From Vulcanimicrobiota bacterium (lineage in GTDB: Bacteria > Vulcanimicrobiota > Xenobia > Xenobiales > JADMJV01): a stretch of 56,330 bases of DNA. The notes under the pieces were generated by a model. It saw only the letters and a program-made list of their open reading frames with translations, had not been told where the DNA came from and did not search any database. Positions 19,032 to 55,303 of the stretch are shown here, one piece after another. The stretch is taken from positions 128,001 to 184,330 of the forward strand of contig JAFKGI010000012.1 in assembly GCA_017307785.1 (NCBI GenBank), given 5' to 3'. Position 1 is the stretch's first letter. Every line of letters starts with the position of its first letter. Position numbers and translations under genes: made by a program.

Positions 19032-19049
19032 TAGCAAACCGGGACAGAA

Positions 19050-37420: not shown

Positions 37421-38748
37421 TTCGCCTCCGCGCGGGACACTTCCTGAAGCGCTCGCTCCATGGTCTCCAAAATATGACTCAAAGAAGCCAGAGACGGCGT
37501 ATTGATCCAGGCCTCCAGACTGTCTACCCCGGCCTTTAGCTGCTCCAACTGCAAACCCAACCGCTCATCGCCGGGCACGGCCGCCAGCAGGCTGCGCCAG
37601 CGCTCCACCTCGGCTTCCATGCTGGCCCGATCCGACTTGCCGTCCGCATACTCCTGGGCCACCGCCTGCAGATAAGCCAGATTCGGGTTGACCCCCCCGC
37701 CCACTGCCGCCTCCGACAAATCGTGCTGCGCCTTCTCGTCCACCCGCTCCAACATACGAAACCCGCAGGCCGGACAAAACTTCTGACCGCCTTCGACGGT
37801 AGCGGCACACTTGGGACAGGCCAGCTGCCCCTGCACGTCCAGCAAGGCCAGCACTTCTTGACGCCTTTGACTCAGGTCTTCGTCGATCTCGCGAATGCCA
37901 TCCAGCGAAGCCTCCGGATCCTCCAGCAGGTTCTGCAACGCTTCCGTCAGCTCGGCAAAAAGAGCCTGCAACTCCTTGCCCTTCTCCTCCAAGAGCGCGC
38001 TATCCACCGTAGTCAAAAGCGCCGATACCCCTTGACTCAAAGAATGCAACTCGGCCAGTTTGCGCCACACGAAAGCGTGCAGCTCGGTGTCGTCCTGCGA
38101 CTGCAGCAACAAGTCCAGATGCTCCAACCAGTTGGCCGGCAGCGCCGGCCCCAGCAACTCCGCGTAGCCGTGAGCCAACCGCTGCACCTGATCCAGCTGG
38201 GCCTCGCTCTCGGATCCCGCCGCCAAACGCAGCAGCCCCTCCAAGGACTCCAGCAAAGCCTGAGCGCAACGACCCAACTCCACTTCCATCCCGGGCGTGT
38301 CGATGGCGTACTGCAAACGCCGGCGCTCGGTCTCGATGCAGTGCCAGTAAAACTCCTGGTCCCCACCGCCCATCCAGGACTCGTAGGCCCAGAACATCTG
38401 ATTGATACCGGCCAACGGAGTCGGCCCGTGGAGACGCCACACCTCTTCCTGGAACTGCTGCAGGTTCTGGGTGTGCTGACGATGCAGGCGTAAAAAGAGA
38501 CCGGCCAGCTGGGGGTCGATGGCCTGCTGCAGCTCGCTGGCCCCCTGCAAGCAGTCCTGGTATCCCTGACTCACCCGCTCTTCCAGCTCGTTCAGGTTCT
38601 CGCGCAGCTCCTCGGGCATGGCCAACAAATTGGAATGCCAGCTGGCGAAGTGCTCTTCCAGACCCTGGGAAAAGGCGGCGAAATCGGGCAAGTCGGCCTC
38701 GTTGCCGCTGGCAACGTAGGCCTCAAGACGGTCCTGGAAGGAGTTCAA
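37417..38748 (-). CDS. Hypothetical helical protein with zinc ribbon
   Basis: 443 aa, mostly predicted helical. CPKC...x12...CPAC zinc ribbon. ATGA overlap with the downstream gene. Confidence 0.45.
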   Translation of the reverse strand: MNSFQDRLEAYVASGNEADLPDFAAFSQGLEEHFASWHSNLLAMPEELRENLNELEERVSQGYQDCLQGASELQQAIDPQLAGLFLRLHRQHTQNLQQFQEEVWRLHGPTPLAGINQMFWAYESWMGGGDQEFYWHCIETERRRLQYAIDTPGMEVELGRCAQALLESLEGLLRLAAGSESEAQLDQVQRLAHGYAELLGPALPANWLEHLDLLLQSQDDTELHAFVWRKLAELHSLSQGVSALLTTVDSALLEEKGKELQALFAELTEALQNLLEDPEASLDGIREIDEDLSQRRQEVLALLDVQGQLACPKCAATVEGGQKFCPACGFRMLERVDEKAQHDLSEAAVGGGVNPNLAYLQAVAQEYADGKSDRASMEAEVERWRSLLAAVPGDERLGLQLEQLKAGVDSLEAWINTPSLASLSHILETMERALQEVSRAEAK

Positions 38749-39080: not shown

Positions 39081-39362
39081 CGCAAAGCCCGACTTCTTGA
39101 CTTCCGCGGCCTCTTCGGCAAAACGCATCGGCCCATATCCGGGGCCCGTCGACTCCGAGGAAGCGCGAAAGCCGTCCTGGGGAGCCGTTTCCTGGTTTCT
39201 TTCCGGGCGCTTGACGCCACTCGGAGCGGCCCCGATCAGGGAGGAATACTGCGTGGAAATCATGCAGATAGTTTCTGCTGAAGAAAAAAGACTCCTGCCC
39301 ACTAGACGGGCTAGACTTGTGGTGGGATACAGGTAGTTGGTGATTCTTCGCCTGGAGGTTTG

Positions 39363-40931
39363 ATGTACGCTCAGTACAACTTGGGGAACCCTTCGTTCTG
39401 CGCTCCCACGCCGTTCAGCCCTGGCTTTAATCAGGGCTACGGCAACTTTGGAATGACCCAGCAGATGCTCGGCAGCCCCTACGGCATGCCGCAAGGCTGG
39501 GGTGGCATGCAAAATCAGATGCAGCAAATGATGATGATGATGCAGACCATGATGATGTTCCAGCAGATGCAAATGCAGATGCAGGGCGGCGGAATGGGCC
39601 CGGGCAACTTCTACCCGCCCATGCCCCAGCCGTATGGCCCCATCCCTCCCAACCACGGTTTCCCCCCCTTCCCTCCCCAGCCGTACAACAACCAGCCTTA
39701 CAATAACCAGCCCTACAACAATCAGCCTTACAACAACAATCCTTACGGCAACGGCCCGCAGCCCTTCCCAGGGCCGCGCCCCCAGCCGTTTCCGGCGCCC
39801 GCTCCCCCTCCCTGGAACGGACCCAAGCCCACTCCCCAGCCAGCTCCCGCCCCCAAGCCGGTCCCCAAACCCGCGCCCAAGCCGCTCAATGCTCAGCAAT
39901 GGCGCACCAGCCTCAATGGCAACCCCGGCGCCCTCAAAGCCTACAACGCCATGACCCCGGAACAGCGCGCCACCGTGGATCGCCTGGGCATGAACCATCC
40001 CGCCGAAGCCGGCGGTGCCGATGCCAACTTCCTGAAGATCATGGGCAACGGTCGCCTCACCAATCGCGACCGCCAGGGCCAGACCACGCTGCAGCACCTG
40101 GATCAGCTGGATCGCCAGAAAGTCCCCAAAGAAGTCGACAAACCCACCGCCTATCGCGAACTGGTGGCCAACATCGCCGAACCCGGCAACACCAATCAAC
40201 GCGGTCGCGGCACCTGCGCCCCCACCTCGGTGGAGTACGTGCACGTCAAGAATCAGCCTTCCGACTACGCCCGCGTGGTCACCGGACTGCTCTCGGAAAA
40301 AGGCGAAGTCCGCATGAACAACGGCGAGACCATGAAGCGCAACGCCAGCGGCCTCGGCCCCGATAACAGCGGACGCACCTCGGTGGACCGCATCTATCAG
40401 TCCAGCATGATGGACTACGCCGACGGCGACAAAATGACGTACAACAACCAGACCGACCAGCACGTCGGCGCCGACGGCAAAAACTCGCACCAGGGCATGT
40501 ACCTGAACGAAGAAGCCAAGGCTCTCAACGCCGTCACCGGCGAACGCCAGACTTCGCGCGGCGTCGACCCCAACAACACCGGCTTCATGGGCATTCGCCG
40601 CTTCACCACCGATCGCGACCTGCGCCATGAACTCAGCGAAGGCCGCAATCCCATCGTCTGCATGACCTGGGACCAGAGCCCGGGAGCGCGCGACAAAGAC
40701 CACGCTCTCACCATCACCAAGATGGATGGCGACTATGTCTACCTGCGCAACCCCTGGGGCAACGACGAAAAGGGCGGAACGAACGGACCCCCGCGTGAAG
40801 TCGTCGATCCCAATACCGGACTGGTGCGCATGAAGAAAGACGACTTCTACGCCCGCCTCACCGGCATCAACCAGCGCGAAGACGACCGCAGCTTCGCCGG
40901 CCGCTGGTGGGACCGCATCACCGGCAGCTAG
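39363..40931 (+). CDS. Calpain-like cysteine peptidase with Q/N/M-rich prion-like N-terminal domain
   Basis: GGAGG 5 nt before the ATG. N-terminal QNQMQQMMMMMQTMMMFQQMQMQMQ and four QPYNN repeats plus a Pro-rich stretch. C-domain has RGRGTCAPTS (Cys), DHALTI (His) and YLRNPWGNDE (Asn box, cf. calpain RLRNPWG). Confidence 0.65.
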   Translation: MYAQYNLGNPSFCAPTPFSPGFNQGYGNFGMTQQMLGSPYGMPQGWGGMQNQMQQMMMMMQTMMMFQQMQMQMQGGGMGPGNFYPPMPQPYGPIPPNHGFPPFPPQPYNNQPYNNQPYNNQPYNNNPYGNGPQPFPGPRPQPFPAPAPPPWNGPKPTPQPAPAPKPVPKPAPKPLNAQQWRTSLNGNPGALKAYNAMTPEQRATVDRLGMNHPAEAGGADANFLKIMGNGRLTNRDRQGQTTLQHLDQLDRQKVPKEVDKPTAYRELVANIAEPGNTNQRGRGTCAPTSVEYVHVKNQPSDYARVVTGLLSEKGEVRMNNGETMKRNASGLGPDNSGRTSVDRIYQSSMMDYADGDKMTYNNQTDQHVGADGKNSHQGMYLNEEAKALNAVTGERQTSRGVDPNNTGFMGIRRFTTDRDLRHELSEGRNPIVCMTWDQSPGARDKDHALTITKMDGDYVYLRNPWGNDEKGGTNGPPREVVDPNTGLVRMKKDDFYARLTGINQREDDRSFAGRWWDRITGS

Positions 40932-41421: not shown

Positions 41422-42708
41422 TCAAGGAACGACCACGCCCACCTGATCCAGACCAGAAATGCCAAACCACAGGTTGCCGTCCGGCCCCGGATTGATGCCA
41501 TAAGGCCGCGACAAAGCGGTCAGTGCTGCAGAGGTAAACTCGCTCACCACACCGGTCTGCGTGATCCGCCCCAGCCGGCCTCCCTGGTACTCGGTAAACC
41601 AGAGGTTCCCGTCCGCTCCGGCACAGATGCCGACCGGCCTCGCCGCCGCGCTGATCCCCGAGGAGAACTCCGTAATCACACCGGCCGGGGTGATCCGCCC
41701 GATGCGATTCCCGCCGAACTCGGTGAACCACAGGTTGCCGTCCGGTCCCGCGCAAATCCCTTCGGGCGCGGACCCGGCCGTAATTCCAGTCGAGAACTCT
41801 GTCACCACCCCCGCGGTGGTGATACGTCCAATGCGATTCCCGCCGAAGTCGGTGAACCACAAATTACCATCCGGACCGCTGCAAATCTGGCTGGGGAGAG
41901 CTCCTCCGCTAATTCCCGCGGAAAACTCGGTGATGACGCCGGCAGGCGTGATGCGCCCGATGCGGCCGCTATTCTGCTCGGCGAACCAGAGATTTCCATC
42001 CGGTCCCGCACAAATTCCGTAAGGACCGCTTGCAGCCGTAAGTCCCGCCGAGAACTCGGTGACTACCCCGGCCGTCGTGATCCGTCCGATGCGGTTTCCG
42101 GCAATCTCGGTGAACCACAGATTCCCATCCGGTCCGGCGCAGATGACATAGGCCTGAGCGCCGCTGGTCAGGCCGGGAAATTCGGTGACAGCGCCACTAC
42201 TGGGATTCAACCGGCCAACCCGATCTCCGCCGTTCTCGATGAACCAGAGGTTGCCGTCGGGTCCCGCGCAAACGCCGGTTGGAGCAGCCCCTGCGGAAAT
42301 ACCGGTGCTCACGGCCTGAATGGTTCCGACGGGCGGAACCACCCGCAGGTTAGAGTTCGCACTCAGCCCACCGAAAGCCGCCGTAATTGTGGCCGACACC
42401 GCCGGAATCACCTGGGTCAGAGACTGGCCCGTGGCCAGGCCGCTGTTGGAAACCACACTGGCGGCCCCCGGATTGGAAGAAGTCCAGGTCGCCAGATTGG
42501 CCACGTTCGCACTCTGACCATCGCTGCTGGTAGCGGTCGCCACAAACTGCAGGGTCTCGCCCGAATGAATGCGGGCAGAAACGGGACTGACCGCCAAACC
42601 CGTCAGGGTCGGCAACGGGACGAAGCCCCGATCTCCACTCGTGCTACTGCCGCAGCCCAGTGCGAACAGCGCCAGACTTAAAATTGTCGTACGCAATGCA
42701 GAACTCAT
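41422..42708 (-). CDS. Vgb (streptogramin B lyase)-like 7-bladed beta-propeller lipoprotein with Big_2-like N-domain
   Basis: Lipobox LALFALGCGSS. The Big_2-like segment is LTGLAVSPVSARIHSGETLQFVATATSSDGQS. Seven repeats of ICAGPDGNLWFTE....IGRIT..G...EF. Confidence 0.75.
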   Translation of the reverse strand: MSSALRTTILSLALFALGCGSSTSGDRGFVPLPTLTGLAVSPVSARIHSGETLQFVATATSSDGQSANVANLATWTSSNPGAASVVSNSGLATGQSLTQVIPAVSATITAAFGGLSANSNLRVVPPVGTIQAVSTGISAGAAPTGVCAGPDGNLWFIENGGDRVGRLNPSSGAVTEFPGLTSGAQAYVICAGPDGNLWFTEIAGNRIGRITTAGVVTEFSAGLTAASGPYGICAGPDGNLWFAEQNSGRIGRITPAGVITEFSAGISGGALPSQICSGPDGNLWFTDFGGNRIGRITTAGVVTEFSTGITAGSAPEGICAGPDGNLWFTEFGGNRIGRITPAGVITEFSSGISAAARPVGICAGADGNLWFTEYQGGRLGRITQTGVVSEFTSAALTALSRPYGINPGPDGNLWFGISGLDQVGVVVP

Positions 42709-42874
42709 AACCCGGAAGATATCGCGAGACCAGCAACCACTCCTGCTTCCGGAAACAAATCGCCAGCATCATGCCCGCCTATCCCGACGGCAGCGCCCTC
42801 CTATACCAATCCACAAGGAAAACCGCCCGTCTCTCTCGACTCATGGAGAAACCATCGCAAACGAAGGAGTTCCC

Positions 42875-44146
42875 ATGAAATCAACCCTACGATCCGGCCT
42901 GCTGACCCTGGCCTTGCTGACCCTCGGATGCGGTGGCAGCACCTCGGACAACCTGGGTGTGCAAACCCCGACCCTCGCCTCCCTGACCGTAACCCCCGCG
43001 TCGGCCCGCCTCCTTTCCGGACAGACCCTGCAATTCACGGCCACCGCCACCGCCAGCGACGGACGCAGCGGCGACGTCACCTCCCTATCCACCTGGGCCT
43101 CCTCCAACAACTCGGCCGTCACCATCGTCGGCAACACCGGCCTGGCCACCGCCCAATCCATCACCCAGGTCGTGCCCGCCCTCACCGCCACCATCACGGC
43201 CGCCTTCCAGAACCTCAACGCCAGCACCAGCCTCAGACTGATCCCGGCCACGGGCACCATCCAGCGTCTCACCACCGGCCTCACCGCCGCCGCCGGCCCC
43301 ACCTGCATCTGCACGGGCCCCGACGGCAATCTCTGGTTCACCGAAAACGGCACCAGCAGCATCGGCCGAATCAACCCGACCACCGGAGAGATCACGGAAT
43401 TTTCCGGCCTGAGCGGAGTCCGCCGGCCCAACTTCATCTGCGCCGGACCGGACGGCAACCTCTGGTTCACCATCGGCAGCATCGACCGCATTGGCCGCAT
43501 CACCCCCGCCGGCGTGATCACCGAATTCTCCACCGGCATCTCCGCCAAGTCCTACCCCTACGGCATCTGTGCCGGTCCCGACGGCAACCTCTGGTTCACC
43601 GAAATCGACACCAACCTCATCGGCCGCATTACCCCGGCCGGAGTGGTCACCGAATTTCCCGTCCCCACGGCCGGCGTCGAACCGTTCCAGATTTGCAGCG
43701 GCCCGGACGGCAACCTGTGGTTCACCGAGCATGTCGGAAATCGCATCGCCAAAATCACCACCGCCGGCGTGGTCACGGAATTCTCCGGCCTCACCGCCAA
43801 CAGTGGCCCCGACGGAATCTGCGCCGGCCCCGACGGCAACCTCTGGTTCACCGAAAGAGACCGCGACGCCATCGGCCAGATCACCACCGCCGGCGTCATC
43901 AGCGAATTTAGCGCCGGCATCACCGCCGGCGCCTTGCCCCACACCATCACCCCCGGACCCGACGGTAATTTCTGGTTTGTCGAACTGGCCGGCCGCATCG
44001 GACGCATCACCCCCGGCAGCGATGTCACCGAATTCACCGGCCCCCTCACCAACAACTCGATTCCCTTCGCCATCACCCCCGGACCCGACGGCAATCTCTG
44101 GTTCACCGAACTGGTCGGAAATTCGGTCGACGTCCTCGTCCCCTAA
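42875..44146 (+). CDS. Vgb-like beta-propeller lipoprotein (paralogue, divergently transcribed)
   Basis: AAGGAG 5 nt before the ATG. LALLTLGCGGS lipobox, Big_2-like segment, and the same GPDGNLWFTE/IGRIT repeat seven times. Confidence 0.75.
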   Translation: MKSTLRSGLLTLALLTLGCGGSTSDNLGVQTPTLASLTVTPASARLLSGQTLQFTATATASDGRSGDVTSLSTWASSNNSAVTIVGNTGLATAQSITQVVPALTATITAAFQNLNASTSLRLIPATGTIQRLTTGLTAAAGPTCICTGPDGNLWFTENGTSSIGRINPTTGEITEFSGLSGVRRPNFICAGPDGNLWFTIGSIDRIGRITPAGVITEFSTGISAKSYPYGICAGPDGNLWFTEIDTNLIGRITPAGVVTEFPVPTAGVEPFQICSGPDGNLWFTEHVGNRIAKITTAGVVTEFSGLTANSGPDGICAGPDGNLWFTERDRDAIGQITTAGVISEFSAGITAGALPHTITPGPDGNFWFVELAGRIGRITPGSDVTEFTGPLTNNSIPFAITPGPDGNLWFTELVGNSVDVLVP

Positions 44147-44249
44147 AATACAGCAGCGCAACCGCTCACCGGTAACAAGGGAACCGCTGAGCGGTTGCCC
44201 GCCCCACACCCCCAGGGGAGCCCCAACCCCCCGCCGAATCCGCATTCCC

Positions 44250-46739
44250 ATGCTGCTCGTGCAAACCGCCGACGACCTCCTCTACGTCCCCGACCGGGAC
44301 ATCGCCAGCATCATGCCCACCTACCCCGACCGCTGGCGCATCGTCCTGCAAGACGGCCGCGTCGGCCACCGCACCGGCCCCGCCCCCCAAGGTCCCTGGG
44401 TCCCCCTGCAAAACGGCTGGGTCCGCCCCGAGCATCTGAAGAAAGAAGACAACCACTGGGTTGACCCGGCCGGCTTCCGCTACCCCTACCAACCCCTCGA
44501 CATCCCCGAAGAAGAAGAACCAGCCAGTGACCTCCCGCCCGGCCTGCTCACCGTCGAAAGACGCGATAAAACCTGGTTCTGGTGCACCGACAGCGGAGAA
44601 CTCCCCTGCGAAGGCCCTCCCCAACCCCACCCGGACCTGGCCCAACTCACCCCCCATCAGCTGGTCTACCTTCCGCGCGTGCGCCGCCTGTACACCACTC
44701 CCCCGGGTCCGTGCGCCGCCCTCGAACTGGACAACGGCCGGCAACTCAAAGTCCTGGGCGGCCTCTACTTCCGCCTGGCCAACCGGCTGGGCCTGGAAAG
44801 CTTCGTCTCCCTCGACCTCAGCGTCCCCGAGACCATGTGGAAACTGCGCGACTTCCCCTACGACCTTACCAGTGCCGACCCCGACAAAATCCTAAAAGAC
44901 CTCCCCACAGAACTGGCCTTCCTACAAAACCTGCTCTGGCAAGTGGCCACCCAGAACCGAACCAATGACTACGACAAAGCCGGCTTCGCCCAGCATCCCA
45001 TGCTCAGCTCGGCCCGCCGCTGCGGCTACCATCCCACCAAAGGGCGCATCTACATGCTCCTCCATCAATTGACCGTGGAACAAGAACTCTTCACCCTGCG
45101 CCAGCTCGGCTTCCGCGAAATCAGTCCCGAGCGTCGCCTCACCGGCAGCCGCCACCCCAACGTCGTGCTGCTCGCCCCCCACCCCGAACTCCAGGCAGCC
45201 CGCAAAGCCGCCCGGGAACACGGCATCAGCCTGCTCATCACCGGCAACTCCGGGGCCATCACCCAAGAATACCTGGCCGCCGAACTCAGCGGACCCATCC
45301 AAATTCTCCGCTACAACGTCCCCGACAACGAAATCAAAACCCTGCGCAAACGCTTCGCCCAACTCGGCTTGCCCAGCGGCCCGCCGATCCTGGTCCAAAA
45401 CCTGCAAAACATCCCGTCCCACCAACCGACCGCGCTCACTCCCCAACCCTTCAGCCGCATCCCCCTCCAGGACTTCACCGGCCTCTACTACGCCGACCCC
45501 CAGGAAATCGCCGCCTGGACCCCCACTCGCCCCGAAGGCTACCGGGTCGACCTCCACAACGGCCGCATCCTCCACCACCCCGGCCCCCCGCCACCCATCC
45601 CGCCACAAAGCCCGGTCGACCCCCGCCTCCAGCTCAAGAAACACCAATGGCACCTCGATGACGGCACCCAACAGAAAACAGGGCTCGACTTCCTGGACGC
45701 CGCCGCCCAACATCCCAGCCTGGCCGGCCGCACCAAAGACCACCGCTTCAACTACAACCGCCTGCGCTCCAGCGACCCCCTGCATCTGCACCTGGACGAC
45801 GGCACCGCCCTGCCCGTTCCCCAGCGCCTGTGGCGCCATAAACTACAAACCATCCTGGGCATCGACAACCTGGCCGAACTCTCCCCCGACCCCCATTGCC
45901 GCCGCTACCTCCAACTACGCGATCTACCCTACGAAATCGTGCGCGCCAAAGCAGACAAACTTCAAGCCGACTTCCCCGACTGGACCCAGCTCATCGCCAA
46001 CATCGTCTGGCAAGTCTATTGCGAACGCTACCAATACGCAGATACCTTCCAGGGCTTCTTCTACCGCCCCCTGCAGGCCGTGCTCTACCGCGCCGGCTAC
46101 CTCACCCGCGCCCAACTCAGAAGCCCCAGCGCGGCCAAAGACAGATTCTACGCTCGCTACTGCACCCTGCTCACCCGCATGGTCCGCCACTACCGCCTCT
46201 TCCACTATCACCAGATCGGCTTCGTCGACCCCTTTCCGGCCAGCCGCATCCTGGGCGACCGCCATCCCCAGCGCATCCTGCTGGTGGAAAAAGGCGACTT
46301 GCTGGAAGAACACGCTCTGCAACTCCAAAAAGAATTCGGCCTCACCGCCCTCATCCTCAAAGGCTGCCCCTCGCTGCTGGCCACCGAATACTTCTGCAAA
46401 GCCCTGCGCGAAATCTATCAAGGCCCTGTGGAAGTCTACTACTACGGCGACTTTGACGATGCCGGCTGGGATATCGGACCCGCCTTTGTCAAGCAGTTGC
46501 TCTTCTACGGCATCCAGTGCGTCCGAATGGAACGACTGGTTCTCCCACAGATCTTCACCCCCGAAGAGCAAATGCTCTACTCCCGCCCCCTGGATGCCCA
46601 AGCCCCCCACCTGATCACCCGCCAGCAACGCTTCCTCCAAGAAAGCGGCGGCGTCCAGGGCCAGCTGCGCGGCATCCACGGCAACTGGCTGCAGCCCTAC
46701 AGCCGCCTGCGCACCCGCCTCGAGGAACTCATGCCATGA
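44250..46739 (+). CDS. Gene A: tandem-duplicated protein, N-module with degenerate TOPRIM and C-module with intact Spo11/TopoVI-A/JetD-like TOPRIM
   Basis: 829 aa. Two homologous modules of about 415 aa (LRDFPYDL...LLWQV and LRDLPYEI...IVWQV). Module 2 has RILLVEKGDLLEE, then YYYGDFDDAGWDI about 55 aa later, then ESGGVQGQLRGIHGNWLQP. Module 1 has VVLLAPHPELQAA and ILRYNVPDNEI at the same places. Confidence 0.6.
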   Translation: MLLVQTADDLLYVPDRDIASIMPTYPDRWRIVLQDGRVGHRTGPAPQGPWVPLQNGWVRPEHLKKEDNHWVDPAGFRYPYQPLDIPEEEEPASDLPPGLLTVERRDKTWFWCTDSGELPCEGPPQPHPDLAQLTPHQLVYLPRVRRLYTTPPGPCAALELDNGRQLKVLGGLYFRLANRLGLESFVSLDLSVPETMWKLRDFPYDLTSADPDKILKDLPTELAFLQNLLWQVATQNRTNDYDKAGFAQHPMLSSARRCGYHPTKGRIYMLLHQLTVEQELFTLRQLGFREISPERRLTGSRHPNVVLLAPHPELQAARKAAREHGISLLITGNSGAITQEYLAAELSGPIQILRYNVPDNEIKTLRKRFAQLGLPSGPPILVQNLQNIPSHQPTALTPQPFSRIPLQDFTGLYYADPQEIAAWTPTRPEGYRVDLHNGRILHHPGPPPPIPPQSPVDPRLQLKKHQWHLDDGTQQKTGLDFLDAAAQHPSLAGRTKDHRFNYNRLRSSDPLHLHLDDGTALPVPQRLWRHKLQTILGIDNLAELSPDPHCRRYLQLRDLPYEIVRAKADKLQADFPDWTQLIANIVWQVYCERYQYADTFQGFFYRPLQAVLYRAGYLTRAQLRSPSAAKDRFYARYCTLLTRMVRHYRLFHYHQIGFVDPFPASRILGDRHPQRILLVEKGDLLEEHALQLQKEFGLTALILKGCPSLLATEYFCKALREIYQGPVEVYYYGDFDDAGWDIGPAFVKQLLFYGIQCVRMERLVLPQIFTPEEQMLYSRPLDAQAPHLITRQQRFLQESGGVQGQLRGIHGNWLQPYSRLRTRLEELMP

Positions 46740-48022
46740 TCCAAATCCAGGACGAAAACGGCCTCAGCCTCTGGCCCGAGCAACTCATCGTTTCCATCAC
46801 CCCCGCCTACCCCAACCGCCTGTGCGTCACCTGCGCGGACGGAACCGTCGGCTACATGCCCCACCCCATCCCCCCGGACTGGCCCAGCTCCACAGAATAC
46901 CAGCCCGAGCCTCACTGGGGCCTGCTACGCACTCCCGACGCCCTGCTCTGGGACGGCAGCCAGCTCTGCCTGCAAAGCCTGGAGGAAGCCACTCAGAATC
47001 TCTTCCAGGCCGGCCGCCACCTCTGGCTCCATCCCCGCCGCATACGCCGCGTCAGCAAACAAAGCGGCGGCCTGCTGCTTCTCACCGATGAAGGCACCGA
47101 ACTCGTCATCACCCCCCACTGGAGCCAGCAAGTGCTGAAGGCCCTGCACATCCCTTACCTCCCCGACGCCCCCAGCGGACCCTTTCTGCGCGACTATCCC
47201 TTCGAACTCGCCCGCGCCTCGGCGGCCGTCCTGCGCCAACACTTCGCCGACCCCAACACCCTCATCGCCAACCTCATCTGGCAACAACTCGTCTACCACC
47301 AGAGCGGCATCCACAAGGGCTACGGCACCAGCCCCCGAGGCTTCTGGTACGTCCCCGGGGCGGCCACCCTGGCCCGCCTCGGCAGCATCAGCGCCCATCA
47401 AGCGGAAATGATCTACTACCGCCTGCTCGTCAAACTCATCGACGACGATCGCCTCTTCGGCTACCGCGACCTTGGCTTCGCGGACCCCGGCGCCGACAGT
47501 CGAGAAATCGGCACCCACCACCCCGGCATCCTTCTGGTCATCGAAAAAACCGACCTGGCCAAAACTGGTGTCGCCGCCGCCCGCCACTTCGGCCTCAGCT
47601 GGCACATCACCGGCGGAATCTCCCGCCTGTTCACCGCCGAATTCTGCGCCTACGCCCTCCAACAAGCCGGCCAACAAAGCCTGCGCACCCTCATCTTCGG
47701 CGACTACGACCCCGGCGGCCGCGTCAACGGCCGAGCCATCGTGGCCCACCTCGACCGCTTCGGCACCCCCACCCCCGCCGGCCCCGAATTCCTCATCGAC
47801 GCCTCCGCCTTCACCGAAGAAGAACTCGAACTCTTCTCCCATCCCCTCAGCCAGGACGACGAACGCGTCCAAAAATGGCTCCAAGAAACCGGCGGAATCC
47901 ACGGCCAACCCAACGGCATCCACGCCGACTGGCTTCAGCCCCCCGAACGCCTCCTCCCCCTGATCGAGGCCAAACTTAGCCTGGCAGCTCCGGCGGCGCC
48001 ACCAGCCGACTCCGCACCTTGA
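46736..48022 (+). CDS. Gene B: single-module paralogue of gene A with intact TOPRIM-like motifs
   Basis: 428 aa. ATGA overlap with gene A. GILLVIEKTDL ... LIFGDYDPGGRVNGRAI ... ETGGIHGQPNGIHADWLQP. The N-region aligns to both A modules (SITPAYPNRLCVTCADGTVGY vs SIMPTYPDRWRIVLQDGRVGH). Confidence 0.6.
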   Translation: MIQIQDENGLSLWPEQLIVSITPAYPNRLCVTCADGTVGYMPHPIPPDWPSSTEYQPEPHWGLLRTPDALLWDGSQLCLQSLEEATQNLFQAGRHLWLHPRRIRRVSKQSGGLLLLTDEGTELVITPHWSQQVLKALHIPYLPDAPSGPFLRDYPFELARASAAVLRQHFADPNTLIANLIWQQLVYHQSGIHKGYGTSPRGFWYVPGAATLARLGSISAHQAEMIYYRLLVKLIDDDRLFGYRDLGFADPGADSREIGTHHPGILLVIEKTDLAKTGVAAARHFGLSWHITGGISRLFTAEFCAYALQQAGQQSLRTLIFGDYDPGGRVNGRAIVAHLDRFGTPTPAGPEFLIDASAFTEEELELFSHPLSQDDERVQKWLQETGGIHGQPNGIHADWLQPPERLLPLIEAKLSLAAPAAPPADSAP

Positions 48023-49541
48023 CCTCCACCTCACTGCGCCGCGTCGCCCAGGCCGGAAACGGAAACGTCACCACCAGCGGCAACGGCACTTCCGGCTGAG
48101 CCACAATCATCGTCCCCGGCGCCAACAACGTCGCCCGCCGCCGCAAACTCTCGCCCAACCAGGCATACTGCTCGCGCGCCGCCTCCGCCGATTCCAAGCG
48201 GCCCACCACGCGCAGCGCCGAATTCCCCACCACCCGCTCCTCCACTTGAGAAGCCGTCTGCTCCGCCCCTACCAGCACCACTCCCAGACTACGCCCGCGT
48301 TCGGCCACATCCAACAACATCTGACGAATGGCATCGCCTCCATCGCGAGGCGCATACTTATTCAACTCGTCCACCATCAAATAGGTGGTGGGAAACCCGT
48401 CCGGCATCGACTCCCGCGCCAGAAACACCGTCTGCAGAACCGCCCCCAGCACAAAGGCCCTGGCCCGATCCGAAAGCCGATGCACATCCACCACATTCAT
48501 CTGCCCCTCAAACGGATCAAACCGCCCCTCGGCCCCGACCAATCCCGCAATCTGCGGACCCAACGCCTTCAAACGCCGCGCCAACGCCCGCCGAGTCGGC
48601 GTGGTCACATTCTCATACCACTTGCTATCGGCCTTGCCAGACTCCGCAATCAAAAACTGCACCAGCCCCGCCATATCGCTCACCGACTGCCCACCCAGCA
48701 ACAAACCAGAACCCTCGGAAACGGACGCAGCCTCACGCAAACACTCCAGCAACCGCTCCACTCCGAATTCCATCACCCCGGTCTGTTCCGTATCCGCCAG
48801 CAAATAGCGCAAAAACTCCCGTTCGGCAAACTCGCGCAACGTCCACAACGGCCGGCTCACCCCATGAAAAACAACCTCAGAAAACGGCTCGCATGGCAAC
48901 TCCAACTGCTCATAAACCGCCCGCTGCTCCGCGCTCAAGCGGGCATTCGGACGATCCAAATACAACAAATCATCGCCCTTCACATTGAACAAAATGGCCC
49001 GCGAATTTCGCCCCGCCTCGCTCTGAAACAAGCTGTAGAGCAAAAACAAAGCATAACTCGTCTTGGTGGCCACCCCGGAAATCCCGGCAATGTTCACGTG
49101 AGCCCCCTTCACCCCGGAAAGAAAGTCCACATTCGCATAGGCCGCCATCCCATTTCTCATCACCCCAACCGGAATACGCCGAGTCATCGAATCAAAGCGC
49201 ATCGCCCAATTCACATTTGCCACCGAACAACGCTTTACCGACATCCCTGGCAAGGGCGGCAAATAAACCTCCGGATACGTCCGAATCACTCTCACCAAAG
49301 CCCGATAATGCTTGCCCACCCCGATGGCATCCACCACCCCGAAATGCCCCACCCAGCCCACATTCTCTACCTTCCGCCAGGTCTCCACCACCGCCCCCAG
49401 CTCCAGCTCCTGCGGCGAACGCACCTCCACCGTAAACTCCAGCGGCGACGCCACCGGCCGCGCGGAAACAACCATCGGAAACCCTGCATCATCACTCATC
49501 CCCGCCCATTCGCCCCGCCCCCTCAGACCTCCCGCGCCCAA
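47976..49541 (-). CDS. Gene C: HerA/DUF87-like P-loop ATPase
   Basis: N-terminal barrel-like region, P-loop variant HVNIAGISGVATKTSYAL, Walker B TTYLMVDELNKYAP (cf. HerA hhhDEAHxxxP). 47-nt convergent overlap with gene B. Alternative starts at 49499 or 49475. Confidence 0.55.
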   Translation of the reverse strand: MGAGGLRGRGEWAGMSDDAGFPMVVSARPVASPLEFTVEVRSPQELELGAVVETWRKVENVGWVGHFGVVDAIGVGKHYRALVRVIRTYPEVYLPPLPGMSVKRCSVANVNWAMRFDSMTRRIPVGVMRNGMAAYANVDFLSGVKGAHVNIAGISGVATKTSYALFLLYSLFQSEAGRNSRAILFNVKGDDLLYLDRPNARLSAEQRAVYEQLELPCEPFSEVVFHGVSRPLWTLREFAEREFLRYLLADTEQTGVMEFGVERLLECLREAASVSEGSGLLLGGQSVSDMAGLVQFLIAESGKADSKWYENVTTPTRRALARRLKALGPQIAGLVGAEGRFDPFEGQMNVVDVHRLSDRARAFVLGAVLQTVFLARESMPDGFPTTYLMVDELNKYAPRDGGDAIRQMLLDVAERGRSLGVVLVGAEQTASQVEERVVGNSALRVVGRLESAEAAREQYAWLGESLRRRATLLAPGTMIVAQPEVPLPLVVTFPFPAWATRRSEVEVKVRSRLVAPPELPG

Positions 49542-49582
49542 AGCAGGGCCAAGAAACCCAATTCCCGAAAGCCAATTCCCTC

Positions 49583-52500
49583 ATGGCGGGTGGAGCAAAT
49601 TTCGGATTCCTGGAACAACACGATCCCCAGCTCATGCACCTGGCCCAGCGCGCCGAACGCTACCTGGCCGACGACCCCAACACCTGCCTCATCAAATTGC
49701 GCCAATTCGGCGAATTGCTCATCAAGCACGTAGCCGCCCAGCACCGCCTTCAGGAAGCCGAGAACTTCGCCGCCACCATCCATCTGCTCCAACGCGAAGG
49801 CGTCCACGCCAGCGTCATTCAGGGCTTCCACGACCTGCGCCGGGCCGGCAATGACGCCGTCCACGGCTTCCGCGGCGACCACCAAGAAGCACTGCTCAAA
49901 CTCAAAACCGCCCGCGCCATGGGCACCTGGTATCACCGCGTCACCAAAGACCGCAGCTTCGAACCCGGCCCCTTCGTCCCGCCCCCCAGCGACGACGAAC
50001 AACTCCAGCAACTCCAGGACCAGCTCCAACAAGCCCTGCTGGAAAAACAACGCGCCCAGAACGTCGCCGAAACCGAAGCCCAGGCCCGCGCCCAGGCCGA
50101 ACTCAAAGCCTTGCAGGCGGCCGAAGAAGCCGCCAGCTGGAAAAGCCTGGCCGAAGAAACCACCTCACCAACCCCTGTGGCCACCGTCCCCCTCGAGGAG
50201 CTCAAAACCGCCACCGCCCAACAACCCCTCGACGAAGACGAAGCCGACACGCGCATCAAAATCGACGCCCAACTGCGCGCCGCCGGCTGGCAGGTGGACA
50301 GCGTCGAGCTCCGCTACGCCAAAGGCGCCCGCCCCCAGCAAGGCAAAAGCCTGGCCATCGCCGAGTATCCCACCCCCAAAGGACCAGCCGACTACGTCCT
50401 CTTCCTGGGCCTCACCCCGGTCGCCATCGTCGAGGCCAAGCGCAAAACCAAAGACGTCTCGGCCAGCCTGGAACAAGCTCGCCGCTATGCCAAAGCCCTG
50501 CCCGACCCCATCCCCTTCCTCTTTGCCACCAACGGCCGCCCCTACCTCAGACAGCTGATCGAGAAAAGCGGCGTCTGGTTCCGCGACGAACGCCGTCCCC
50601 AAAACCGCGCCCACGCCCTCAAAGACTGGTACACCCCCAAAGGCCTGGAAGCTCTACTCGCCCAGGACCTCGACCAGGCCCACCAAAAGCTCGAAAAAGA
50701 GCCTTTCGCCTACCTGCAACTACGCGACTACCAGATCCAGGCCATCCAATCGGTGGAAGCCGCCATCGCCGAAGGCAAACAGGACATCCTGCTGGCCATG
50801 GCCACCGGCACCGGCAAAACCCGCACCGCCATCGGCCTCATCTACCGCCTGCTCAAAAGCAAACGCTTCCGCCGCATCCTCTTCCTGGTCGACCGAACCG
50901 CCCTGGGCAACCAGAGCTTCAACGCCTTCGAGCACTTCCGCCTGGAACAAAACCAGACATTCACCGAGACCTACGACGTCAAGTCCCTGGGCGACGTCAC
51001 CCCCGACGAAACCACCAAAGTCCACATCGCCACCATCCAGGCCACCATCCAACGAGCCCTGGAAAGCGACGAGGCCAACGCCCCCGTCGACCAGTACGAC
51101 TGCATCCTGGTCGACGAATGCCATCGTGGCTACAGCCTGGATCGCGAACTCACCGACAACGAGCTCACCTACAAAAACGAGCAAGACTACATCTCCCAAT
51201 ACCGCCGCGCCCTCGACCACTTCGACGCTGTGCGCATCGGCCTCACCGCCACTCCCGCCCTGCACACCACCGAAATCTTCGGCCCGCCCATCTTCCTCTA
51301 CAGCTACCGCCAGGCCGTCATCGACGGCTACCTGGTCGACCACGAACCCCCCCTGCAAATCGTCACCAAACTTGCTCAAGATGGCATGGTCTGGCCCGCC
51401 CAGTCAGAGATGCTCCTCTACAACACCCAAACCCAAATGCCAGAAACCACCTGGCTACCCGACGAAGTCAAAATCGACCTGGAAAAGTTCAACAAGACCG
51501 TCCTCACCGAGAACTTCAATCAGGCCGTCTGCCAGGAACTGGCCCGCCACATTGACCCCACCCTGCCCGGCAAAACCCTGGTCTTCTGCGCCACCGACCT
51601 GCACGCCGACATGGTCGTACGCCTGCTCAAAGAAGCCTTCGAAGACGCTCCCGAACAGGCGGTCGTCAAAATCACCGGCGCCTCCGACAAACCCAACGAA
51701 CTCATCCGCCGCTTCAAAAACGAACAATACCCCAGCGTGGCCGTCACCGTCGACCTGCTCACCACCGGCGTCGACGTCCCGCAGATCTGCCACATCGTCT
51801 TCCTGCGCCGCGTCAAAAGCCGCATTCTCTACCAACAAATGATCGGCCGCGCCACCCGCCTGTGCAAAGACTTCCTCAAAGAAAGCTTCCACATCTACGA
51901 CGCCGTCGAACTCTACAAAGACATGGACGAGTTCTCCGACATGAAGCCGGTGGTGGTCAACCCCAAAACCACCGTCGAGCAGCTGGTGCGCGAACTCACC
52001 ACCGCCCCCGAAGAGGCCCGCCACGAAGTCTTAGACCAGCTGCTCGCCAAACTCCAGCGCAAAAAACGCAGCCTCCAGGGCAACACCTTCCAAGAACTCG
52101 CCGGCCAGACCTTAGCCGACCTCATCGAGCAACTGCGCGGCCAGACCCCCGAACAAGTCGCCACCTACTTCGGCGAACGCTTCGCCCTGGTCAGCTACCT
52201 CGACACCCACAAACCCAACCCCGCCCTCTATGTCGTCTCCACCCACGAAGACGAAGTCGCCTACACCGCCCAAGGCTTCGGCCCCGGCAACCAGCCCCCG
52301 GCCGACTACTTAGAAGGCTTCGCCCACTTCATCCAACAAAACCTCAACGAAGTCGCCGCCCTCACCCTGGTCACCCAACGCCCCAGAGACCTCACCCGCG
52401 AAGACCTCCGCCAATTACGCCTCCTCCTGGATAACGCCGGCTTCTCCGAAACCCAACTCAAAGCCGCCTACCGCAGAACCACCAACCAGGACATCGCCGC

Positions 52501-52801
52501 CAGCATCATCGGATTCATCCGCCAAAAAGCCCTCGGCTCCCCCCTCATCCCCTACGAAGAACGCGTCGACAAAGCCCTCAAAAAGGTCCTCTCCACCCGC
52601 CCCTGGACCGACCCCCAACGCAAATGGCTCGACCGCATCGCCAAACAGCTCAAAAAAGAAGTCATCGTCGACCACCACGCCCTCGATCAAGGCGAATTCG
52701 CCGCCCACGGCGGCTTCCAAACCATCAACAAAAAACTCGACGGCCAGCTCGCCAACCTCCTGGCCCAGTTCCAAGACGCCATCTGGGACGACGTCGCCTG
52801 A
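49583..52801 (+). CDS. hsdR: Type I restriction enzyme R subunit with DUF4145-like N-terminal domain
   Basis: EADTRIKIDAQLRAAGW (HsdR N-motif), LLAMATGTGKTRTAI (Walker A), ILVDECHRG (DECH), helicase C-domain QMIGRATR. About 200 aa N-terminal extension: FGFLEQHDPQLMHLAQRAERYL... Confidence 0.9.
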   Translation: MAGGANFGFLEQHDPQLMHLAQRAERYLADDPNTCLIKLRQFGELLIKHVAAQHRLQEAENFAATIHLLQREGVHASVIQGFHDLRRAGNDAVHGFRGDHQEALLKLKTARAMGTWYHRVTKDRSFEPGPFVPPPSDDEQLQQLQDQLQQALLEKQRAQNVAETEAQARAQAELKALQAAEEAASWKSLAEETTSPTPVATVPLEELKTATAQQPLDEDEADTRIKIDAQLRAAGWQVDSVELRYAKGARPQQGKSLAIAEYPTPKGPADYVLFLGLTPVAIVEAKRKTKDVSASLEQARRYAKALPDPIPFLFATNGRPYLRQLIEKSGVWFRDERRPQNRAHALKDWYTPKGLEALLAQDLDQAHQKLEKEPFAYLQLRDYQIQAIQSVEAAIAEGKQDILLAMATGTGKTRTAIGLIYRLLKSKRFRRILFLVDRTALGNQSFNAFEHFRLEQNQTFTETYDVKSLGDVTPDETTKVHIATIQATIQRALESDEANAPVDQYDCILVDECHRGYSLDRELTDNELTYKNEQDYISQYRRALDHFDAVRIGLTATPALHTTEIFGPPIFLYSYRQAVIDGYLVDHEPPLQIVTKLAQDGMVWPAQSEMLLYNTQTQMPETTWLPDEVKIDLEKFNKTVLTENFNQAVCQELARHIDPTLPGKTLVFCATDLHADMVVRLLKEAFEDAPEQAVVKITGASDKPNELIRRFKNEQYPSVAVTVDLLTTGVDVPQICHIVFLRRVKSRILYQQMIGRATRLCKDFLKESFHIYDAVELYKDMDEFSDMKPVVVNPKTTVEQLVRELTTAPEEARHEVLDQLLAKLQRKKRSLQGNTFQELAGQTLADLIEQLRGQTPEQVATYFGERFALVSYLDTHKPNPALYVVSTHEDEVAYTAQGFGPGNQPPADYLEGFAHFIQQNLNEVAALTLVTQRPRDLTREDLRQLRLLLDNAGFSETQLKAAYRRTTNQDIAASIIGFIRQKALGSPLIPYEERVDKALKKVLSTRPWTDPQRKWLDRIAKQLKKEVIVDHHALDQGEFAAHGGFQTINKKLDGQLANLLAQFQDAIWDDVA

Positions 52802-52886
52802 GGAGGCTCGACTCGTCAAAAGAGATTGTCTACACAATGTGTAGACAATCTTAGCGGGTAAGCCCCTACAACTTCGACTGGTCCAA

Positions 52887-53258
52887 TTAAGCCGAGGCCC
52901 CGCGATTCTTTCTGGGGAGACCGGTGAACTTCTTCAGCAACGAAGGTTCTTCCAAAAACTCCAGAATTCGCGCAGCCGAGCGCGACGGATTTCGAAGCCC
53001 CTGCTCCCAACTACTGACCGCGTCCGTCGACACCCCCACCACTCGAGCAAGAAACGCCTGACTGTAACCCAGCTGCTCGCGCAGCTGCCGAACGCCCGCT
53101 GCACCATAAACCTTTGGAGGATCAGGCACTTCGACTTCTCGCGTTTTCAGGCTGATCTTGCCCTGCTCGAAAGCCAGAACCTCCTCGAGCCCCTGCAGAA
53201 TCTCGCTAGCAACGCTAGAGCGTTTTTTCATCGTGACCACTCCTTCTTTTGACTTCAA
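52887..53258 (-). CDS. HigA-like antitoxin (XRE-family HTH)
   Basis: LREQLGYSQAFLARVVGVSTDAVSSWEQGLRNPS helix-turn-helix. Lies downstream of and overlapping the toxin gene. Region GC is lower than the surroundings. Confidence 0.7.
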   Translation of the reverse strand: MKSKEGVVTMKKRSSVASEILQGLEEVLAFEQGKISLKTREVEVPDPPKVYGAAGVRQLREQLGYSQAFLARVVGVSTDAVSSWEQGLRNPSRSAARILEFLEEPSLLKKFTGLPRKNRGASA

Positions 53259-53583
53259 GTTGTATCGCTTCCGCCAGAGAACGAAAGGCCTTTTTGTCGT
53301 CTGAACTCAGGTCGTCGCATTCATCCTTACTGTAGAGCGTGAGGAGATAGATTCTTTTAGCCGCAACAATCGGCAGATAGACGATGCGCAAACCGCTGCG
53401 CTTACCTTTGCCCCTGGCGCTCTCCGCCCATCGAATCTTGCGTATGCCACCACACCCCGGGATAACGACTCCAACCTCCGGATTCCTGACCAGCTCCTCC
53501 TGAAACCTGGCAAACTCGTCATCTCGCGACATCAGCTTGAGAAGCTTCTGCGTAAAGATGCGAGTTTCTACAAAAAGATACAC
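53215..53583 (-). CDS. HigB-like (RelE/ParE superfamily) toxin
   Basis: GKGKRSGLRIVYLPIVAAKRIYLLTLYSKDECDDLSSDDKKAF matches the GKsGGyRvIY...IYLLxIYxKxExxDLs killer-protein motif. The toxin-first gene order is HigBA-like. Confidence 0.65.
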   Translation of the reverse strand: MYLFVETRIFTQKLLKLMSRDDEFARFQEELVRNPEVGVVIPGCGGIRKIRWAESARGKGKRSGLRIVYLPIVAAKRIYLLTLYSKDECDDLSSDDKKAFRSLAEAIQLEVKRRSGHDEKTL

Positions 53584-53896
53584 CCCGAACTATACGACAA
53601 AGTCGCACAGATTGCCTACCGTCCCTGTAATATCCGGACTGCCCGGATCGTCTAAGAAAATGAGAAAACTACAAACGGAGGCGATCGTGAGACCACGCGT
53701 TGGACTAAATAGAGCGATAGCAAACACTTCCCCAGAGGAAGCTGAGCAGAGATTGGCGGCCAGGGGCCTCGATCTCGAACAATACCGCGCCGAGTCCCGC
53801 TCTCACGCCCGTACGAGGGCCGGCGGATTTGCTGGCGCGTCTTGCTGTGCAGCCTCCCCTTGCAGGACTAAGCCCGCCAACGCGAATCCCCGCCCT

Positions 53897-55303
53897 ATGT
53901 CACTCGTCGCCCCAACCCAAGACATCGTCGCCAAACTCTGGAACCTCTGTCACGTCCTGCGCGACGACGGCATCACCTACCACGAATACGTCACCGAGCT
54001 CACCTACCTGCTCTTCCTCAAAATGGCCCAGGAGACCAAAAAAGAAGACCAGTTGCCGCCCCACTACCGCTGGGCCGACCTCGCCTCCAAAGACGGCATC
54101 GAACAGCTCGACTTCTACCGCGCCATGCTCCTCCACCTCGGCACCGACTCCGAGTCCCCCCGCGTGCGCGCCATCTTTGCCAACGCCAACAGCGCCCTGC
54201 GCGCCCCCAAAAACCTCAAAACCCTCACCGACAGCATCAACAGCCTCGACTGGTACAGCGCCCGCAGCGAAGGCCTCGGCGACCTCTACGAAGGCCTGCT
54301 CGAGAAGAACGCCAACGAAACCAAATCCGGCGCCGGCCAATACTTCACCCCAAGACCCCTCATCGACACCATCGTCCACCTCATGGATCCCCAACCCGGC
54401 GAACTCATCCAGGACCCCGCCTCCGGCACCGGCGGCTTCCTCATTGCCGCCAACCGCCACATCCGCGAAAAAACCGACGACCTCTTCGAACTCAAAGAAG
54501 ACCAACAATACTTCCAGCGCAACCGCGCCATCTACGGCATGGAACTCGTCCCCGACGTCCAACGCCTCGCCCTCATGAACCTCATGCTCCACGACCTCGA
54601 CTCCGACATCACCCTCGGAGACGCCCTCAGCCCCGACGGAGCCAACCTCCCCAAAGCCGACCTCATCCTCACCAACCCACCCTTCGGCTCCAAAAAAGGC
54701 GGCGGCCTCCCCACCCGCGACGATTTTACCTATCCCACCTCCAACAAACAATTAGCCTTCCTCCAGCACATCTACCGAGGACTAAAACCCGGAGGCCGCG
54801 CCGCCGTCGTCCTCCCCGACAACGTCCTCTTCGAAGGCAACGTCGGCGCCAAAATCCGCGCCGACCTCATGGAAAAAACCAACCTCCACACCATCCTCCG
54901 ACTCCCCACCGGCATCTTCTACGCCCAAGGAGTCAAAACCAACGTCCTCTTCTTCACCCAAGGAACCCCCACCACCACCACCTGGATCTACGACCTCCGA
55001 ACCAACATCCCCCAATTCGGCAAACGCACCCCCCTCACCCGAGGCCACTTCGCCGACTTTGAAACCGCCTACCACAACCGCACCGATCAAGGAGAAACCG
55101 GCCGCCTCCGCCCCTACACCCGCGACCAGATCCGCGACCGCGGCGAAAACCTCGACATCACCTGGCTCCGCGACGAAAACGCCGACCACGCCGACGACCT
55201 CGGCGAACCCGCCGAGATTGCCGCCGAGATCATGTCGAATCTCCGGACCGCAATGGAAGAAATGGAAGCGCTGATGGAAGCTCTTGAGGGTGGCAAAAGT
55301 TAA
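53897..55303 (+). CDS. hsdM: Type I restriction-modification N6-adenine DNA methyltransferase subunit
   Basis: N-terminus IVAKLWNLCHVLRDDGITYHEYVTELTYLLFLKM parallels EcoKI HsdM. FTPRPLIDTIV (motif I region), LILTNPPFG (NPPF, motif IV). The upstream extension in the ORF track is rejected. Confidence 0.9.
   Translation: MSLVAPTQDIVAKLWNLCHVLRDDGITYHEYVTELTYLLFLKMAQETKKEDQLPPHYRWADLASKDGIEQLDFYRAMLLHLGTDSESPRVRAIFANANSALRAPKNLKTLTDSINSLDWYSARSEGLGDLYEGLLEKNANETKSGAGQYFTPRPLIDTIVHLMDPQPGELIQDPASGTGGFLIAANRHIREKTDDLFELKEDQQYFQRNRAIYGMELVPDVQRLALMNLMLHDLDSDITLGDALSPDGANLPKADLILTNPPFGSKKGGGLPTRDDFTYPTSNKQLAFLQHIYRGLKPGGRAAVVLPDNVLFEGNVGAKIRADLMEKTNLHTILRLPTGIFYAQGVKTNVLFFTQGTPTTTTWIYDLRTNIPQFGKRTPLTRGHFADFETAYHNRTDQGETGRLRPYTRDQIRDRGENLDITWLRDENADHADDLGEPAEIAAEIMSNLRTAMEEMEALMEALEGGKS

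Follow-up and report, generated by a model that had tools for sequence, protein, structure and literature searches.

A 56,330-nt stretch of DNA from a Candidatus Eremiobacterota (Vulcanimicrobiota) metagenome-assembled genome (MAG; contig JAFKGI010000012.1) of an uncultured soil bacterium, referred to below as the window, carries two adjacent genes, A and B, whose products are shown by motif conservation and structure models to represent a previously unnamed bacterial branch of the topoisomerase VI-A (Top6A)/Spo11 superfamily with a full set of predicted catalytic motifs. On the opposite strand lies gene C, which encodes an ATPase of the HerA type and is probably a facultative partner of the other two. 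We infer that A and B, with or without C, probably act as a HerA-assisted, Spo11-like DNA-cleaving conflict module.

Genes A and B are built from three copies of one module

Gene A (44250-46739, plus strand, 829 aa) and gene B (46736-48022, plus strand, 428 aa), both taken from the list of open reading frames (ORFs), are coupled through an ATGA overlap at 46736-46739. The protein deposited at NCBI as 'hypothetical protein J0I12_13035' is 100% identical to gene B. Comparing A with B revealed 33% identity over ~440 columns for residues 404-829 of A (E 5e-46; C-module, 45459-46739), and a third, weaker module copy in residues 1-403 (24% identity, E 4e-15; N-module, 44250-45458). A and B together are three copies of one ~420-aa module, two in A and one in B, which bears out the paralogy proposed in a preliminary description of this DNA that had been made from the sequence alone.

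In order to define the fold of the module, B was modelled with AlphaFold2 from a 26-sequence alignment (pLDDT 91.3, pTM 0.80). Foldseek comparison of this model with the PDB gave Top6A (1d3y) as the top match (E 4e-6, probability 1.0), with the topoisomerase VI (Topo VI) structures 9o7o, 9o8p and 2zbk ranking next; Spo11 (8urq) was also among the matches, and a LytTR domain (3d6w) covered the N-terminus. A diverse family profile matched LytTR 3d6w at E 0.001 and the Top6A of S. shibatae at E 0.065, with EK aligned on EK, DxDPxGW on DADPYGW, and RgfwY on RDLYY, the last stretch being co-linear but sub-threshold. In the models, the module consists of a LytTR-like DNA-binding domain (residues ~1-140 of B), a helical CAP-like domain (~160-240) and a Toprim domain (~260-420). 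The C-module of A shows the same LytTR-like, CAP-like and Toprim domains, its N-module follows the same fold plan as a pseudo-enzyme, and in a full-length model of A both modules were well predicted and folded alike. The TOPRIM fold that had been suspected in A and B was thus recovered, placed within a Top6A-like architecture. Searches with A and B returned zero matches at E <= 1 in Pfam and NCBIfam, and PADLOC, as had been anticipated, made no assignment, its sole match being JetD3 (E 0.03) over 25 residues around the DxD.

Catalytic residues are conserved in an asymmetric pattern

The acidic residues expected of a Toprim domain were located in B (LLVIEK with E270-K271, 47543-47548; GDYDPGG with D323/D325, 47702-47710) and in the C-module of A (ILLVEK with E680-K681, 46287-46292; GDFDDAG with D734/D736, 46449-46457), in both cases with a Glu-to-DxD distance of 53-54 residues. 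The corresponding spacing in Spo11 is 55 residues (E233 to D288). In the domain upstream of the Toprim, B carries R201-G-F-W-Y205 at the start of a helix (47336-47350); the C-module of A has the tyrosine (Y605, 46062-46064) and a Gln at the Arg position of this R-x3-Y motif. R201, Y205, E270, K271, D323, D325 and G328 were near-invariant across 144 representatives of 50%-identity clusters, and likewise in alignments A1 and A2. Because of this near-invariance, the Glu...DxD signature, which the preliminary description had already pointed out, lies far beyond chance. The C-terminal consensus of the family is GG(I/V)xG...G(I)HA(D/N)(W/H)LxPxER.

The three modules differ in what they retain. In the N-module of all A orthologues, Arg, Tyr, Glu-Lys and DxD are lost together: in the window, AGFAQ stands in place of RGFWY and VVLLAPH in place of LLVEK, the DxD is gone and the Toprim domain is cut short. 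Across orthologues, Tyr, Glu-Lys and DxD persist in the C-module of A, and another residue (Q, S, A, G or M) always takes the place of the Arg. The full residue set is retained by B and by the single-module relatives, the Arg being missing in a few. Judged by these residues, A joins a catalytically dead module to an Arg-less one, and B is fully equipped.

The modules are of the Top6A/Spo11 type and distinct from JetD

In Top6A, Mini-A and most Topo VIII enzymes, the catalytic tyrosine lies in the motif R-x-x-(Y/F)-Y (R99/Y103 in M. jannaschii; PMC7671362). In contrast, the CAP-equivalent domain of MksG/JetD offers no candidate tyrosine, and MksG is a hydrolytic nuclease (PMC10123090). Because the modules keep an invariant R-x3-Y, we assign the family to the Top6A/Spo11 type and not to JetD. 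Of the original label 'Spo11/TopoVI-A/JetD-like', the first two names are therefore retained, on the basis of fold and R-x3-Y, and the link to JetD/DUF2220 is dropped. Membership of JetD/Wadjet had been considered in its own right and was rejected in view of the short JetD3 match, the lack of any Pfam DUF3322/DUF2220 match and the invariant Tyr.

With Top6A/Spo11, the modules share R-x3-Y, the Toprim Glu and DxDxxG, and they occur in pairs, as expected of an enzyme that works as a dimer. They depart from Top6A/Spo11 in having an extra N-terminal LytTR-like domain and a shorter CAP region, in forming a predicted heteromeric, asymmetric pair (one dead plus one Arg-less module on the A side), in their marginal sequence similarity (E 0.065), in going unrecognised by Pfam, and in residing in accessory regions of Eremiobacterota (Vulcanimicrobiota). 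The partner differs as well: no GHKL B subunit (Top6B/Top6BL) was found beside A/B in the window or in the loci examined, the sole HATPase_c protein seen in the window being a histidine kinase 18 kb away, and the recurrent partner is a HerA ATPase.

Among other relatives, Mini-A and the A-domains of Topo VIII resemble the modules as stand-alone or unusual Top6A-like proteins outside archaeal chromosomes that carry RxxΦY, Glu and DxDxxG and have the first half of the 5Y-CAP missing; for Mini-A, a B subunit has not been identified (PMC7671362). The C-terminal consensus of the modules is, however, neither xWELDAL nor RVELNAM, and compared with Mini-A the modules are longer (~430-520 versus ~300 aa), have a LytTR-like N-terminus and form paralogous pairs. 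A relationship to viral Mini-A was rejected, as viral contigs and the viral structure library BFVD gave no match and the xWELDAL (T2BI) signature is not found. The best functional analogy is offered by Wadjet JetD/MksG, in which a separate ATP-driven DNA motor likewise operates in a conflict system. In A-B-C, the motor would be HerA and not SMC, and the modules keep the invariant Tyr that MksG does not have (PMC10123090). In agreement with the preliminary description, a non-exhaustive Pfam scan of 33 window ORFs turned up no protein of the SMC/JetABC type; the related loci scanned likewise yielded no SMC or kleisin-type genes, and none of the homologues examined sits in a Wadjet operon.

Gene C encodes a HerA-type ATPase

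Gene C (47976-49541, minus strand, maximal ORF from the ORF list) aligned to the HerA of D. radiodurans (PDB 7f6d, chain 7f6d_B) with E 7.6e-91 over the HAS/RecA-like core. Compared with canonical HerA, the protein is shorter and its helical insert is reduced; both its Walker A (GISGVATKT, 49059-49085) and its Walker B (LMVDELNK, 48357-48380) are intact. As far as sequence can tell, C is a genuine bacterial HerA-type hexameric ATPase, and the HerA-like character ascribed to it earlier holds over the alternatives of an FtsK or coupling protein. More than 7,330 homologues were found; those in the databases begin 22 codons further in than the maximal ORF, and since the database homologue has 499 aa, the real start is probably 49475 or 49499 and not 49541.

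A canonical relative of C (43% identity, L015) belongs to a HerA-SbcD-SbcC operon that is followed by an unannotated 309-aa gene, which occupies the position expected for NurA. NurA, Mre11 and Rad50 were not seen beside C, whose flanks are B and hsdR, or in the module-linked loci scanned, and a NurA-type Pfam match was likewise missing from those loci. In PADLOC, the HerA profiles matched C partially (E 7.6e-6, residues 349-493), mad8 matched it with E 9e-11, and mad1 gave a weak match on an HTH-like ORF. A MADS operon comprises eight genes (mad1-mad8), including dedicated methylase, kinase and specificity genes, an arrangement that differs from that around C. Membership of C in MADS was rejected, since mad8 is a generic HerA-like profile (the mad hidden Markov models were made from HHpred/PDB alignments and are hence generic) and the other mad genes are absent.

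HerA genes recur beside the modules in four gene orders

To place the pairing of C with A and B in context, we compared HerA-like genes of the Eremiobacterota subfamily that are 48-86% identical to C. In five of the seven loci examined, modules adjoin HerA, the exceptions being L013 and L039. Four arrangements were observed. B and C are convergent in the window, with 3' ends overlapping by 47 nt (48022 versus 47976), and the same layout with a 53-nt overlap is found in the closest relative, L034. The genes are divergent in L003/L004, a module precedes HerA with a 13-nt overlap in L037/L038, and HerA is followed by two modules with overlapping starts in L040. The latter locus was reached from the HerA side and its modules are 28-30% identical to B; overall, the linkage holds where modules are merely 28-38% identical. 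In an all-against-all comparison of ORFs (loci through L033), only the modules and HerA recur, and hsdR, which adjoins C in the window, adjoins HerA in no other locus.

HerA is thus recurrent, as it accompanies the modules in four gene orders, yet facultative, as several module loci are HerA-less, and it is probably a functional partner of the modules. The earlier suggestion that A, B and C travel together accordingly stands in part: A and B were always found together across the loci examined and HerA lies beside modules in four gene orders, whereas it is absent from about half of the A/B loci for which sufficient flanking DNA is available. The three ORFs, the ATGA junction and the B/C overlap kept their coordinates on re-checking.

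Several individual loci deserve mention. In L005/L009 (GCA_964649085.1, CAZYPN010000010.1), AAA_16-like and ParA/CbiA-like ATPase genes lie on the opposite strand between two single-module genes, and Ser/Thr kinase genes precede this cluster; L010/L037, a module-HerA locus, comes from the same MAG. In L005/L009, the predicted cutters may have these other ATPases as their partners. In L013 (4807-9518, and in L014), the gene for a HerA-like protein 55% identical to C has a phage-type integrase on one side and, on the other, an RPA replication-initiator gene with an HTH_17 excisionase-like gene. This layout is reminiscent of an actinomycete-type integrative element, and it includes no Top6A-like module. 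The small flanking ORFs and a 427-aa gene after HerA in L037 had no Pfam match.

The module family is patchily distributed

A word-indexed protein search returned 38 homologues of B, and a third search of this kind with a diverse profile added one new protein only. In contrast to these counts, an exhaustive search of 1.84 billion cluster representatives with a hidden Markov model yielded 754 at E <= 1e-3 and 487 at E <= 1e-10, mostly single modules of 450-520 aa together with some two-module proteins of 850-950 aa. A pattern-based scan of 185,579 species genomes found at least six module loci, a lower bound given the pattern-based approach; these lie in Vulcanimicrobiota/Eremiobacterota MAGs and in MAGs labelled Burkholderiales. 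The same kind of scan found 18 module loci in JGI metagenomes and no module relatives in 2.9 million viral contigs, and BFVD contained no significant match to the module. Modules are nearly always paired, either as an A-type fusion with B or as two tandem single-module genes (L021, L024, L027, L036 and L040), and several copies can be present in one MAG, as L009 and L010 derive from the same assembly. In L020, L028 and L032, copies are broken, with modules split by stop codons or frameshifts. In L012 (10001-11809), the dead N-module is kept and the start of the A C-module is joined to the end of B, a structure suggestive of a deletion between the two paralogues.

A conflict role is the most likely function

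Recognised defence genes are the immediate neighbours in three independent HerA-linked loci: a type I restriction-modification (R-M) locus with a toxin-antitoxin pair in the window, IetA/IetS in L034 and BrxHI-BrxD-PglZ in L037. In addition, a Mrr_cat/GIY-YIG protein and a Macro-domain protein are encoded nearby in L036, and a DUF4238 protein in L003. Because the neighbourhoods are variable and defence-rich and the distribution is patchy, we consider a conflict (anti-phage or anti-plasmid) role the most likely one. By analogy with Top6A/Spo11, two modules would pair on duplex DNA and form composite active sites, to each of which one module would contribute the Tyr (and Arg) and its partner the Mg2+ site, so that cleavage would produce a 5'-phosphotyrosyl protein-DNA link. 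Within this asymmetric pair, B would be the competent partner, and A would supply the Arg-less module along with a dead copy whose part is probably that of a scaffold or regulator. As no GHKL B subunit is present, strand passage is unlikely, and the enzyme would be a DNA breaker or nicker and not a topoisomerase. The HerA hexameric translocase encoded by gene C might thread or capture DNA for the cutter, or gate its activity, in a manner likened to SMC JetABC for JetD, or to HerA for NurA, Sir2 and DUF4297 effectors.

A HerA hexamer combined with a DNA-cutting effector is an established pattern in HerA-NurA and in the HerA-effector systems (Sir2-HerA, DUF4297-HerA/Hailibu and the DndH-type 'HerA/FtsK capture systems'; PMC10853773). 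Here, in contrast, the partner would be a Top6A/Spo11-like Tyr/Toprim enzyme and not NurA, Sir2, DUF4297, PD-(D/E)XK or HKD. The HerA profile match to Sir2-HerA and DUF4297-HerA was partial, and C has neither a Sir2 nor a DUF4297 neighbour as effector gene. In the literature searched, we found no paper on a pairing of HerA with a Top6A/Spo11-like protein, in line with the initial view that this combination falls outside the described systems. More tentatively, A-B-C might constitute a new class of type IIB-derived enzyme, namely a bacterial Spo11-like heterodimer (a competent subunit with a crippled one and a fused pseudo-subunit) that makes protein-linked DNA breaks, with a HerA ring translocase coupled to it where a GHKL B subunit would otherwise sit.

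Spo11 and topoisomerase VI-A play central parts in meiosis and in the DNA topology of archaea and plants, and work continues on how partners switch their cleavage on. A bacterial branch with a full predicted catalytic set, asymmetric pairs that include a pseudo-enzyme, and HerA in place of GHKL could provide a simple, tractable natural model for how Spo11/Top6A cleavage is licensed by partners and asymmetric active sites. If A-B-C is a defence system, it would add a nuclease-plus-NTPase effector that acts via a covalent phosphotyrosyl intermediate and not by hydrolysis. Were it also the new type IIB-derived class outlined above, it would amount to a new mechanistic class of immune effector, with covalent, topoisomerase-style DNA breakage as its weapon. 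The family also marks an annotation blind spot, as the 754 cluster representatives are missed by Pfam, NCBIfam and PADLOC.

Several observations weigh against this interpretation. The argument for defence is one of guilt by association, drawn entirely from gene neighbourhood, and some neighbours are housekeeping-like (PHO4, rhodanese, amylase) while other flanks are unremarkable. HerA is missing from the vicinity of about half of the A/B loci whose flanks are usable, and L001, L035, L018, L008, L036, L029 and the P0011 locus are HerA-less within the available DNA. Moreover, L005/L009 pairs the modules with AAA_16-like and ParA-like ATPases, and the HerA-like gene of L013 sits in an apparent integrative element. 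At the level of the proteins, the sequence similarity of the modules to Top6A is marginal (E 0.065), the A model has an overall pTM of 0.43, so that its two modules are placed relative to each other with low confidence, and the predicted equivalence of Y205 with the catalytic Tyr of Top6A is drawn from motif, order and spacing.

Among the alternatives, a role in mobile-element DNA processing appears unlikely. Here, a LytTR-targeted Tyr/Toprim nicking-joining enzyme (relaxase, resolvase or recombinase-like) would operate with a HerA pump in transfer or segregation, in the way of TraB/FtsK-like or TdtA-type ATPases. Relaxases and recombinases make use of phosphotyrosyl chemistry, which is reversible, the LytTR domain suggests sequence-specific binding, and HerA-family ATPases are reported to drive DNA donation in Thermus (PMC5365140). 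The integrase and replication genes around the HerA-like relative in L013/L014, a serine resolvase upstream in L040, and the patchy distribution with several copies in one MAG and degraded copies (L012, L020, L028, L032) fit this alternative as well. Yet no terminal repeats, whether inverted or direct, bound A-B-C, the window ORFs scanned (25-56 kb) revealed no gene for an integrase, for replication or for transfer, and the few ORFs scanned in other A/B loci were likewise negative, save for the L040 resolvase. The family is also missing from the viral contigs and viral structures searched, its flanking genes differ from locus to locus with no recognisable element boundary, and defence systems are its immediate neighbours in three loci.

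We regard it as quite improbable that A-B is self-contained and C an independent HerA-type gene, serving the R-M system or acting alone, that merely shares a variable region. C is convergent to B and divergent from hsdR, many A-B loci have no HerA, and the HerA-like homologues far outnumber those of B in the word-indexed search (>7,330 versus 38), all of which would be compatible with incidental adjacency. Chance proximity is difficult to reconcile, however, with modules being immediate neighbours in five of seven Eremiobacterota HerA-like loci, in four different gene orders, two of which have overlapping reading frames, with a linkage that is kept at 28-38% module identity, and with hsdR being found beside C in no other locus.

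HerA is normally an end-resection motor, and in eukaryotes Spo11 breaks are, as is well established, processed by Mre11-Rad50. A housekeeping or stress pathway, in which the Spo11-like pair introduces programmed breaks that HerA then prepares for recombination or repair, is nevertheless highly improbable: C has its closest counterpart in the HerA of D. radiodurans, a DNA-repair protein (PMC9960219), the canonical relative of C in L015 lies in a HerA-SbcD-SbcC operon with a gene at the NurA position, and the first 27 kb of the window hold ordinary chromosomal genes (PGI, IspG, PRPP synthetase, thiolase), but at least six loci in 185,579 species representatives are far too patchy for a core pathway, NurA, Mre11 and Rad50 were not seen beside C or in the other module-linked loci, pseudogenised copies exist, and the neighbours are defence genes.

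Flanking genes of the locus

On the right flank of A-B-C lies the type I R-M locus (49583-56330), made up of hsdR (49583-52801), hsdM (53537-55303) and hsdS (from 55300), all on the plus strand, with a RelE-like toxin and HTH_3/MqsA-like antitoxin pair (52887-53583, minus strand) between hsdR and hsdM. This locus is context and lies outside the conserved unit. The N-terminus of HsdR carries a DUF4145 domain and also matches the PADLOC candidate PDC-M16A (E 7e-27), making it an extended type I restriction subunit. In L034, the IetA/IetS pair (AAA+ ATPase plus subtilase, 3238-6743) is found where the window has hsdR; because of this replacement, the flank beside HerA behaves like a swap site for defence systems.

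On the left flank, two Vgb_lyase-family beta-propeller genes with Big_2 domains (Pfam) were found at 41422-42708 (minus strand) and 42569-44146 (plus strand). The two are divergent, with a 140-nt overlap between the 5' ends of their maximal ORFs. DNA repeats of 126 nt occur inside the plus-strand gene, one for each propeller blade. Pfam scans agreed with the neighbours named in the preliminary description, i.e., the Vgb-like genes, hsdRMS and the inserted toxin-antitoxin pair. Between the upstream Vgb-like gene and A, a terminator-like hairpin without a T-run (44158-44198, plus strand; inverted repeat I2 with 16-bp arms, 94% complementary, 9-nt loop) marks A-B as a transcription unit of its own. 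Further upstream, ~8 kb from A, an SNF2 helicase gene with DUF3670 (32548-35868, plus strand) is ZorD/DpdE-like in PADLOC (E 1e-118); a DUF3670-SNF2 gene also adjoins the module-HerA locus L037 (13373-13678). The interval between the SNF2 gene and the Vgb-like genes holds a 443-aa zinc-ribbon protein with a weak ZorA-like match (37417-38748, minus strand, E 3e-4) and a 523-aa ORF with no family match (39360-40931, plus strand). No tRNA genes were found in the window.

Reading frames and composition

The A and B proteins are very rich in C, P, H and Q, and C-containing codons are unusually frequent in both genes. An antisense artefact was considered and rejected, because the plus-strand frame is a single 830-codon ORF, homologues align from the proposed ATG, the model is confident, and the composition reflects a strand-wide synonymous skew. 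Indeed, the GC skew at third codon positions (GC3 skew) is ~-0.6 on the plus strand for all genes at 42-56 kb regardless of their coding strand. It ranges from -0.57 to -0.67 in the plus-strand genes (the second Vgb-like gene, A, B, hsdR and hsdM), and C, which is encoded on the minus strand, gives +0.64 when read along its coding strand. Among the housekeeping genes at 9000-27000, GC3 skew is only ~-0.25 for those on the plus strand and ~0 for those on the minus strand. The strong strand-specific skew at 42000-56330 may point to a separate compositional history for this island.

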